IMG/VR virus record: IMGVR_UViG_2563366860_000007
Location: 1 to 40,364 of that record
DNA length: 40,364 nucleotides
Reading direction: 5' to 3' (one strand)
Source: a virus
Taxonomy: Duplodnaviria > Heunggongvirae > Uroviricota > Caudoviricetes
A model generated the notes under the pieces. It made no database searches, had not been told where the DNA came from, and saw only the letters and a list, made by a program, of their open reading frames with translations. Positions 23,925 through 25,333 of this stretch are shown one piece after another (within the stretch, counting starts at the first letter, position 1; each line of letters opens with the position of its first letter). The translations under genes were made by a program, and so were the position numbers.

Positions 23925-23990
23925 TGCCGCCCGTATCCATATGCGGGCTTTTTTTTGCATGTAAAAAGGCCCCAACACATGTGCGTGGGG
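23925..23990. terminator. Pair of hairpins upstream of the holin (possible bidirectional terminators)
   Basis: GCCCGTAT-CC-ATATGCGGGC followed by T8 (plus-strand terminator) and AAAAA-GGCCCC-N13-GGGGCC (minus-strand terminator). Confidence 0.4.
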
Positions 23991-24192
23991 CCTGAGAGTA
24001 TACATGGTTTCAGTCAACTGCATGGTGCCGGGTGCCTCCCGGTGAATTCAGTACCAGCACCTGAATCCGCGATTATCCCATATACCTACTCGCTGATTGC
24101 CCATCCGCACAGGGGGATTCACCATGCCAGTTTCTTTTAACAAACTCCCCGCAAAACAGACAACTGTCAACCGTCTGAATTGTGAGACATTT

Positions 24193-24218
24193 AAAAAAAA
24201 GGCCCGCAAAAGCGAGCC
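24193..24218 (-). terminator. Rho-independent terminator just downstream of the tRNA cluster
   Basis: Plus strand AAAAAAAA then GGCCCGCAAAAGCGAGCC; on the minus strand a 7-bp stem (with one G-U pair) and UUUU loop followed by U8. Confidence 0.5.
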
Positions 24219-24232
24219 GGGAAAAATAAGTC

Positions 24233-24309
24233 TGGCGCGTTGTACTGGATTCGAACCAGTGACCGATTGCTTAGAAGGCAATTGCTCTGTCCGGTTGAGC
24301 TAACAACGC
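24233..24309 (-). tRNA. tRNA-Arg (anticodon UCU)
   Basis: Hand-folded cloverleaf: acceptor GCGTTGT/ACAACGC perfect, anticodon arm ATTGC-CTTCTAA-GCAAT, T-loop GGTTCGAATCC, encoded CCA; third gene of an Ile-Arg-Arg cluster like ileZ-argN-argO of Stx phages. Confidence 0.8.
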
Positions 24310-24322
24310 AGGGTACAGATAA

Positions 24323-24399
24323 TGGACCGCCTTCGGGGACTCGAACCCCGCGCAACCAGCTTCGAAGGCTGGTGCTCTATCCTGATGAGCTAATGGCGG
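24323..24399 (-). tRNA. tRNA-Arg (anticodon UCG by hand folding)
   Basis: Acceptor CCGCCAT/AAGGCGG with one A-A mismatch at 6:67, anticodon arm CCAGC-CTTCGAA-GCTGG, T-arm CGGGG-TTCGAGT-CCCCG, encoded CCA. Confidence 0.7.
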
Positions 24400-24406
24400 T
24401 ATGTGA

Positions 24407-24482
24407 TGGTGGCCCTTGCTGGATTTGAACCAGCGACCTGGCGATTATGAGTCGCTCGCTCTCACCACTGAGCTAAAGGGCC
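24407..24482 (-). tRNA. tRNA with CAU anticodon, Ile2 (ileX/ileZ-like) backbone
   Basis: Acceptor GGCCCTT/AAGGGCC, anticodon loop CTCATAA, T-loop GGTTCAAATCC; backbone resembles recalled E. coli ileX (lysidine-modified CAU reading AUA) rather than elongator or initiator Met tRNA. Confidence 0.75.
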
Positions 24483-24522
24483 GGGAGCCGCATAATAACG
24501 ACGCGTAATTAATTCTTCAATA

Positions 24523-24801
24523 TCATCCGTTCTGGCTGACTAAATCCTGTACTTCCCGAACCGCCTGCTCAAAACGTTCAGTCTCCAGCTCAACGCCAAT
24601 TGCACGACGCCCGAGCGCCAGTGCCGCTTTCACTGTCGAACCCGACCCCATGAAAAAATCTGCAATCAGGTCACCCGGACGACTGCTAGCGCTGATTATC
24701 TGCTGCAGCATTTCTGCCGGTTTTTCGCACGGATGTTTCCCGGGATAGAACTGCACCGGTTTATGCGTCCAGACATCGGTATACGGCACCTGCGCCGTCA
24801 C
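24523..24801 (-). pseudogene. C-terminal remnant of a beta-class N6/N4 DNA methyltransferase
   Basis: 92-codon ORF with motif I DFFMGSGST and a HPCEKP region typical of the C-terminus of DPPY-first methylases, but no DPPY motif and only a GTG start; an in-frame stop lies about 33 codons upstream. Confidence 0.65.
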
Positions 24802-24859
24802 GCCAAAATACCGCCGCAGTCGGCATTCACAACCACCAGCGCATTTAACGTTCAGCCAT

Positions 24860-24884
24860 AAAAAAACCCGCTCGCGGCGGGTTT
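24860..24884 (-). terminator. tR'-like rho-independent terminator shortly downstream of Q
   Basis: Plus strand AAAAAAA then CCCGCTCGCGGCGGG; perfect GC-rich hairpin followed by U7 on the minus strand, about 70-90 nt downstream of the Q stop. Confidence 0.6.
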
Positions 24885-24886
24885 AA

Positions 24887-24952
24887 GCTGTGTGGCGAAG
24901 TAACCACTCTTAACATACTGACATACTTTTTGCGGACCGCACTAATCATTTT
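24887..24952 (-). promoter_or_regulatory. Predicted late promoter pR' / qut region
   Basis: Short AT-rich interval between the Q stop and the tR' hairpin; assignment by position (Q acts at a promoter just downstream of its own gene); individual promoter elements not resolved. Confidence 0.4.
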
Positions 24953-25333
24953 TTACTTTTTTAGCAGCCAGTCGTCCATCTCCAGTCTTACCCCCAGCAC
25001 AGACAAACATCCGTCAATAAACCCTTCGGCTATCTGCATCTCAATTCGTATTGCTTTTTCGCTTTTCTTTCTCGTCCTGGCTATCTGTCTTTTTGATATT
25101 CGCAACAAATAATGAGCAATGAGAAGCGAATACTCCTCAGGTTTTTTCTGCTTCAGACGAGCAAGACAGTTTTCAATGATAAGTCCGTCATCATCGCAGC
25201 AGGCCGGACGTGGTTTAGTGGCAGATGGTAAAAGTCCTTTGAATCCGGCAGCGATCGGAGAATAGTCCACCCCGGTGTTACCACTTGCAGCCCATGCCCC
25301 CCAGCGTTCAAGAACCATCTGAATATCACGCAT
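24953..25333 (-). CDS. Late antiterminator Q (QuuD-like family)
   Basis: ATG at 25331-25333 (MRDIQMVLERWGAWAA...AAGFKGL...RPACCDDD...) matches recalled DLP12 QuuD; the longer track start at 25348 is GTG. Confidence 0.8.
   Translation of the reverse strand: MRDIQMVLERWGAWAASGNTGVDYSPIAAGFKGLLPSATKPRPACCDDDGLIIENCLARLKQKKPEEYSLLIAHYLLRISKRQIARTRKKSEKAIRIEMQIAEGFIDGCLSVLGVRLEMDDWLLKK

Follow-up and report, generated by a model that had tools for sequence, protein, structure and literature searches.

In the late control region of lambda, a promoter (pR') follows the Q gene, the Q site lies within this promoter, the polymerase pauses early, and Q overrides the terminated leader, the 6S RNA. The lambda leader is 194 nt long. 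The locus described here appears to follow the same logic, although lambda Q belongs to an unrelated family. Q proteins form three unrelated families, with Q21 and Q933W placed together in PF06530 (Yin et al.); lambda Q (PF03589) is unrelated to PF06530, and Q82 belongs to a different family again. Within the Q21/933W family, a literature search found structural work for Q21 only. Q21 is a protein of 162 aa with a long loop in its DNA-binding motif, and the curated order after its gene is a −35 (7 nt on, consensus TTGACA), two direct 8-bp repeats bound by Q, a −10, the start, a pause element (SDPE; TAAGCTG at +2..+8), a terminator and tRNAs. The Q site of phage 21 is located between −35 and −10, the leader measures about 50 nt with the terminator ending at about +50, and 91 nt separate the Q stop from the terminator end.

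Comparable regions have been described in 933W, Sakai Sp5 and the DLP12 prophage of K-12. The annotators of 933W proposed TTTACG/TATCAT as a putative pR', with TATCAT as its −10, a nearby octamer as a putative qut, and two possible terminators. The second of these lies 258 nt from the start and defines StxS. Sakai Sp5 is identical to 933W over the part compared, and dRNA-seq combined with Term-seq puts 258 nt between its pR' start and the 3' end of StxS. In DLP12, a defective prophage, nmpC and IS5 separate the corresponding block from quuD, and Cappable-seq of K-12 reported a plus-strand start at U00096.2 576452 (relative read score 1.7; enrichment 4.8 log2). In Gifsy-1, a short terminated RNA, IsrK, is found directly downstream of the Q gene antQ, with read-through into the downstream genes, but AntQ is a phage 82-type Q and differs in this from the Q described below.

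The window analysed here is a stretch of 40,364 nt from a Caudoviricetes record (IMG/VR IMGVR_UViG_2563366860_000007). All genes around Q and the hairpin that follows it are on the minus strand, as are all features given below. The Q antiterminator gene (24953..25333) encodes 126 aa plus a stop, TAA at 24955..24953. Its product matches PF06530 (Phage_antitermQ) end to end (E 1.6e-52), the sole Pfam match that passes the cut-off, and is 51% identical to QuuD of DLP12 and 49% to Q933W; identity to Q21 is 33%, over the N-terminal part (about 80 residues) only. Residues 9–87 align to the Q21 structures 6P18/6JNX (E 7.5e-8), and hhalign of the Q alignment against Q21 gives a probability of 97% across 82 columns. 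The same gene is annotated as Q in Escherichia phage PhiR49_2, which is 99.5% identical to the window over the Q/hairpin stretch and in which nothing is annotated between Q and the following gene. On sequence grounds the window Q belongs to the Q21/933W family, within a QuuD-like subfamily, and not to the phage 82 family. The initial annotation had called this Q QuuD-like rather than lambda-like, which agrees with these values, and had expected a qut site of the phage 82/21 type, of which the phage 21 part stands, as a 21/933W type, and the phage 82 part falls, Q82 being of an unrelated family. It is likely, with a probability of roughly 0.85, that the Q-adjacent cassette is a lambdoid late control region, comprising a pR'-type promoter, a Q-loading site and a tR', that serves a Q of the Q21/933W family. 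The regions of 933W and DLP12 are homologues of the cassette, and that of phage 21 is a parallel case; promoter activity, termination and Q dependence in this phage are assigned by homology.

To define what is conserved after Q, 80 viral loci and 80 loci from Enterobacterales species-representative genomes were collected, each with a related Q. An nhmmer DNA profile matched the block beside the related Q in 128 of 161 loci. The gap between the block and the Q stop is 0, 10, 29 or 40 nt, or else 0.4–2.4 kb with an insert between, and even the displaced copies retain the conserved 75-nt block with its internal spacing. The elements are ordered as an A-tract, a palindromic core (GCGGTCCGCA in the window), a TAnnnT slot, TG, TAAGAGTGGTTAC, a small 5' hairpin and a terminator. 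Counting from the T of TAAGAG as position 0 (window 24912), A-rich columns occur at −41..−37 (73 distinct blocks), TA at −32/−31, a GC-rich palindrome of 9–10 bp at −28..−19, four A or four T at −18..−15, TAnnnT at −8..−3 and TG at −3/−2, the T being shared with the end of TAnnnT. Downstream there follow TAAGAGTGGTyAC at 0..12, G at 16, CAC at 18–20 and CTTA at 25–28, and then the hairpin and T run. The 73-block profile was pre-filtered, with part of the TAnnnTG and TAAGAGTG columns fixed by the filter, and unfiltered block listings give the same pattern. A literature search with the motif strings found nothing relevant.

In the window, the A-tract AAAAAA (24949..24954) overlaps the Q stop at about −46..−41 from the predicted start, and is a candidate proximal subsite of an UP element. 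The most conserved element of the block, TAAGAGTGGTTAC (24900..24912), includes a −10-like hexamer (AAGAGT/TAAGAG) as well as the site where transcription is predicted to begin, and recurs exactly or nearly so across related blocks, including those of 933W, Sakai and K-12. The 933W block reads TTTACGATCGTAAA-AATCTGCA-TATCAT-GA-TAAGAGTGGTTAC-ATTGCCAC...AACCCGCCGATGCGCGGGTTTTTTT; 933W and Sakai Sp5 show the same elements in the same order, with TATCAT in the TAnnnT slot, TAAGAGTGGTTAC and GCCAC. In 933W the Q reading frame runs into the block. For DLP12, where the initial annotation had suggested an alignment, window 24915..24862 (54 nt) is 96% identical to DNA about 120 nt upstream of essD. The block is repeated in some loci. 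Two copies are present in each of the loci L106–L111, and two copies about 150 nt apart in Yersinia loci. In Serratia loci, a mini-unit of A-tract, GCGTACGCA core, TAATCTGATAAAACTG, GC hairpin and T run occurs in 3–7 tandem copies with a period of about 110 nt directly after Q (L129 2960–3760; L131 2959–3230; L123 2974–3351). The Serratia and Yersinia repeats look like arrays of tiny promoter-terminator units.

A perfect direct repeat of AGTATGT with period 8 (24913..24927; copies at 24927..24921 and 24919..24913, joined by C) can be read in the window. It is found in this lineage only, where it takes up both the spacer of the promoter and the −10 slot, and puts CA where the −10 usually has TA, and it may be a local duplication.

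The position of the promoter can be judged from published starts. The predicted −10 hexamer is CAGTAT (24915..24920), in the TAnnnT slot and followed by the conserved TG (24914..24913; −3/−2 relative to TAAGAG). The T/A/T/G pattern of the slot and TG is kept in all core classes, but the window hexamer is without the usual first T and has no convincing −35. A simple sigma-70 scan reported no promoter between Q and the hairpin. The K-12 start at U00096.2 576452 corresponds to NC_000913.3 577229, the second A of TAAGAGT, 7 nt past TATGCT; this conversion uses an offset of 777 derived from essD/argU coordinates and checked against the argU promoter geometry only, and the start itself is weak, with about 20 reads at its score of 1.7. 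In 933W, a 258-nt stretch that ends with the final T of the second terminator begins at the same A (locus L169, 1201 to 1458); the Sakai start was transferred by this distance alone, and the genome versions differ (NC_002695.1 vs.2). Both starts fall 7 nt downstream of the TAnnnT hexamer. Of three promoter placements considered, the published start data thus select TAnnnT as the −10 and predict a start here at 24908 (±1 nt), the second A of TAAGAGT, with a leader of about 48 nt. A second placement, with the A-tract as −10, the start at GCGG and a leader of about 78 nt, was rejected since the A-tract shows no T at a constant position and the starts that have been mapped are at other sites. The third, an extended −10, is weighed below.

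Another DLP12 start should be kept apart from this one. The "+1" of a published −121..+650 fragment maps about 350 nt upstream of the block and was rejected as belonging to a different promoter. The nmpC-essD spacer of K-12 also contains a strong Cappable-seq start, U00096.2 576081 (relative read score 90), some 370 nt ahead of the Q-type block. This site is close to the start that the "−121" primer of the −121 to +650 fragment implies, yet does not coincide with it; the fragment is attributed to an RpoE paper of 2015.

The intrinsic terminator tR' is predicted at 24860..24884, with the stem 24884..24877/24871..24864, the loop CGCGA and a T run at 24866..24860. The hairpin AAACCCGC-CGCGA-GCGGGTTT (24884..24864) has 8 pairs, 5 of them G-C, and three of the seven T pair with AAA. 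The stem begins 68 nt and the T run ends 93 nt past the Q stop, which bears out the GC-rich hairpin with U7 that the initial annotation had placed about 70–90 nt downstream of Q, and compares with the 91 nt of phage 21. The hairpin alone folds at −11.7 kcal/mol (z = −2.84; 1 of 200 shuffles as good), and a predicted 51-nt leader at −18 kcal/mol (z = −3.28; 2 of 200). Terminator-like sites are frequent in this region, a consensus scan finding 10 in 3 kb, the hairpin included, vs 3.1 ± 1.6 from shuffles. Of 91 distinct blocks, 72 gave a hairpin with a T run in a crude search, and several of the remainder visibly have terminators as well; in 61 of the 72 the T run ends 40–69 nt from the predicted start. 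The stems differ by lineage (CCCGCC/GGCGGG, CCTCGC/GCGGGG, CCCTGCC/GGCGGGG), which indicates that position and structure are kept rather than sequence. RNAalifold on 15 leaders returned three invariant terminator pairs only, with no covariation.

A small 5' hairpin, GUGGU-UACUUC-GCCAC (24892..24907; 24907..24903 with 24896..24892), also appears in the minimum-energy fold of the predicted leader. Comparative support for it is modest: 83.7% of the cells pair in 59 sequences vs at most 64% in slid controls, with one covarying pair (GC 14, GU 14, AU 10).

The first hairpin of 933W, AACCCGCC...GCGGGTTTTTTT (L169 1227–1249), is the homologue of the window terminator, and its Sakai counterpart folds at −12.6 kcal/mol. 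The published 258-nt StxS precursor implies that the polymerase passes this first hairpin to reach the second (L169 1227–1249 vs 1430–1458; L170 for Sakai). Since the Sakai hairpin is read through enough to yield this 258-nt RNA, termination at the window hairpin may be partial. No transcript of about 49 nt with its 3' end at the first Sakai hairpin is mentioned in the passages of the Sakai study that were searched, perhaps as such an RNA would be too short for the libraries.

These leaders raise the question of whether the main product of the cassette is a trans-acting sRNA, made from the terminated leader in the manner of StxS or IsrK, with antitermination secondary. Terminated late leaders do act as sRNAs in Sakai (StxS) and Gifsy-1 (IsrK), and the window leader is predicted to be well folded. 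It also gives a weak full-length match to Rfam isrK (RF01394; 24933..24861), but its 18.3 bits are far under the gathering threshold of 50, and the terminator makes up most of what matches; with the score so low and the Gifsy-1 AntQ of the phage 82 type, homology to isrK was rejected. The active part of StxS is located in the 3' 74 nt of the 258-nt leader, and the window lacks this part: it contains only the first hairpin, without the DNA that lies between the first and second 933W terminators and without stx genes. An sRNA as the main product is therefore improbable, and it does not exclude a late control cassette, with which it is compatible.

Improbable as well is the third promoter placement, in which TGtTAAGAG(T) at 24915..24906 serves as an extended −10, with a start at about 24901–24899, a leader of about 40 nt and the core at about −40..−31. 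It has the attraction that TG stands exactly at −15/−14 with respect to TAAGAG, and does so in every block, and that TAAGAGT is better conserved than the upstream hexamer. The starts mapped in K-12 and Sakai nevertheless lie 7–9 nt upstream of the start it requires, where no separate Cappable-seq cluster is listed. TAAGAG moreover has a G at −7, the 5' arm of the conserved GUGGU/GCCAC pairing would fall outside the transcript, and no −10-like pause element follows. A still weaker proposal, that no late promoter exists, the hairpin merely ending the early rightward (Q) operon while polymerase reading through from upstream reaches the late genes, would suit the empty sigma-70 scan and a hairpin that would also stop transcripts coming through Q, but it is highly improbable given a 75-nt block conserved with its spacing even 0.4–2.4 kb from Q, triphosphorylated 5' ends inside the block in two strains, and homologous regions in phage 21 and 933W that are established or annotated late promoters.

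The late control reading requires a site for Q, for which the palindromic core GCGGTCCGCA (24931..24940) is the candidate. It is located 18 nt upstream of TAAGAG, at about −32..−23 of the promoter, has a single exact copy within the window, and corresponds to the high-information columns −28..−19 of the block profile. The cores sort into five classes, and each of these goes with a single class of the Q helix that precedes AEGF, also five in number. GG(T/A)CC cores accompany the helix E(K/R)x-(I/V)R; GCGTACGC accompanies SDGT-(I/V)R-K; GCG(C/T)TACGC accompanies EGR/EAR/EGM/EGL-(I/V)R; TTCGT(A/T)ACGAA accompanies SEGK-IR; and TACG(TA/AT)CGTA accompanies D(G/T)x-IG-KR, found in QuuD and Q933W. 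The pairing has no exceptions among the cleanly anchored loci, and the five unclassified entries comprise four mis-anchored loci and one GCGGCCGC variant. The core is GCGGTCCGC here vs TACGATCGTA in 933W, with the helices EKA-IR-IE and DTC-IG-KR, respectively; that of DLP12 is TACGTACGTA. Outside the core the block is the same across all classes. In Xenorhabdus, one leader type carries different cores that match the Q class (L139/L163 vs L134/L137/L141/L152).

As the core varies class by class with the Q helix, GCGGTCCGCA is likely the Q-binding element, although the covariation could partly reflect linkage, with Q and core co-inherited. The invariant DNA positions of the core are T.CG.A, and TCCGCA, its 3' half, is similar to TGAGCA, the subsite of phage 21. 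On the protein side, the first Q helix motif (SKR/SLR/SKS) aligns with the DNA-contacting S93-K94-H95 of Q21, and the second helix, at about residues 92–100 (EKAIRIEMQ), is a putative DNA-recognition helix. The hhalign alignment of Q with Q21 stops at helix H5, leaving the recognition helix not alignable to H6 of Q21, and a single-sequence AlphaFold model of Q was unusable (mean pLDDT 46). The candidate is a palindrome of 9–10 bp, whereas the phage 21 site consists of two direct 8-bp repeats; a pair of such repeats between −35 and −10, conserved with Q, was not found at this locus. The paired AGTATGT was considered as a phage 21-like Q site and rejected, for it is confined to one lineage and relatives with the same Q helix and core have unrelated spacers.

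Taken together, these elements suggest the following course. Host sigma-70 polymerase would start at about 24908, a position backed by the homologous copies, using a putative promoter that consists of the −10 in the TAnnnT slot (24920..24915) and the upstream A-tract and has no good −35. Without Q, the transcript would end at the hairpin and T run (24884..24860), to judge by its sequence and homologues, giving a leader of about 48 nt that would correspond to 6S RNA in lambda, to the leader of about 50 nt in phage 21 and to StxS. Q made from the early operon would bind the core GCGGTCCGCA (24940..24931) in the −35/spacer region, as the covariation suggests, and might load on a polymerase held in early elongation. 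By analogy with Q21, Q would then ride with the polymerase and suppress tR' and later terminators, opening the way to holin, lysozyme, Rz and the morphogenesis genes.

What holds the polymerase is the weakest part of this model. With the start at 24908, no −10-like hexamer occurs at +1..+15. The sole −10-like candidate is the invariant TAAGAGT, which spans −4..+3 and overlaps the start, unlike the arrangement in lambda, 21 and 82; the phage 21 element TAAGCTG, which shares TAAG with it, lies at +2..+8. TAAGAGT is nonetheless a candidate sigma-dependent pause element. The hold might come from re-binding of sigma region 2 to TAAGAGT, 18–19 bp past the core, a spacing like that of −35 and −10. 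Measured from the TCCGCA half-site, these 18–19 bp may be set against a distance of 20 bp from the upstream Q21 subsite to TAAGCT and one of 17 bp from −35 to −10. Sigma would re-bind after a forward movement of 8–9 bp, with the polymerase held at about +10 to +14, where core-bound Q could reach the RNA exit channel as it does in Q21 complexes. Extended to the whole QuuD/933W branch, Q on the palindrome in place of a −35 and sigma region 2 on TAAGAGT would together read a "pseudo-promoter" shifted by only 8–9 bp from the real promoter, loading would take place at about +10 to +14, sooner than in lambda, 21 or 82, and the five or six core/helix classes would constitute a recognition code. This proposal is tentative, and we regard it as rather unlikely to hold in full.

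The genes beyond the hairpin are those of a standard lambdoid late region, with the tRNA arrangement of Stx phages and no stx genes. The first after tR' is the 92-aa C-terminal remnant of an N6/N4 DNA methylase (24523..24801; PF01555 positions 137–220 of 221). The methylase is full length (1059 nt) in Stx2a phages with the same Q, and the 933W remnant is shorter still; similarity between the window and the Q module of the Stx2a phages stops near 24851. Three tRNA genes with CAT, TCG and TCT anticodons (24233..24482) follow in the ileZ-argN-argO arrangement, as they do in 933W, where they have their own pT (L169 1583–1611). Directly upstream of them in the window is a promoter-like TTGAAG-17-TATTAT (24492..24520), the homologue of pT; in Sakai, dRNA-seq detected a promoter for the tRNAs. 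The tRNAs probably have their own promoter here as well, and with a pT homologue upstream they need not depend on Q. The expectation in the initial annotation that Q is needed for tRNAs, lysis and morphogenesis alike is accordingly retained for the late genes, which do follow the cassette, but probably not for the tRNAs.

The terminator scan identified a second terminator-like hairpin with T8 after the tRNAs (24193..24218; hairpin 24218..24201), at the place where 933W has its "terminator upstream of the stx genes", and Q-modified polymerase would presumably have to pass this one too. Between the tRNAs and holin there is a strong match to the Rfam sRNA family STnc100 (23957..24156; 133 bits vs a gathering score of 47). 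Past this match, holin (PF04971), DUF1327, lysozyme (PF00959) and Rz are encoded on the same strand.

The first interpretation of this region, a compact promoter and terminator after Q that lead into the late genes, was essentially right, as the same block is annotated as putative pR', qut and terminator in 933W and starts have been mapped in DLP12 and Sakai; what is added is the start-site assignment and the candidate Q-binding element with its class code. For the window itself, the result is routine annotation, placing the border where the early operon gives way to the late one. The same module of Q and block, 97–99% identical, precedes stx2A in some Stx2a-converting phages, and the positions of promoter, Q site and terminator bear on the toxin output of Stx2a strains. 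The match between core and helix offers a testable specificity code for the Q21/933W family. If the pseudo-promoter reading were true, Q might also help a promoter that has no −35, and the core/helix code would decide which Q switches on which late operon, including that of the stx2a phages that carry the module.
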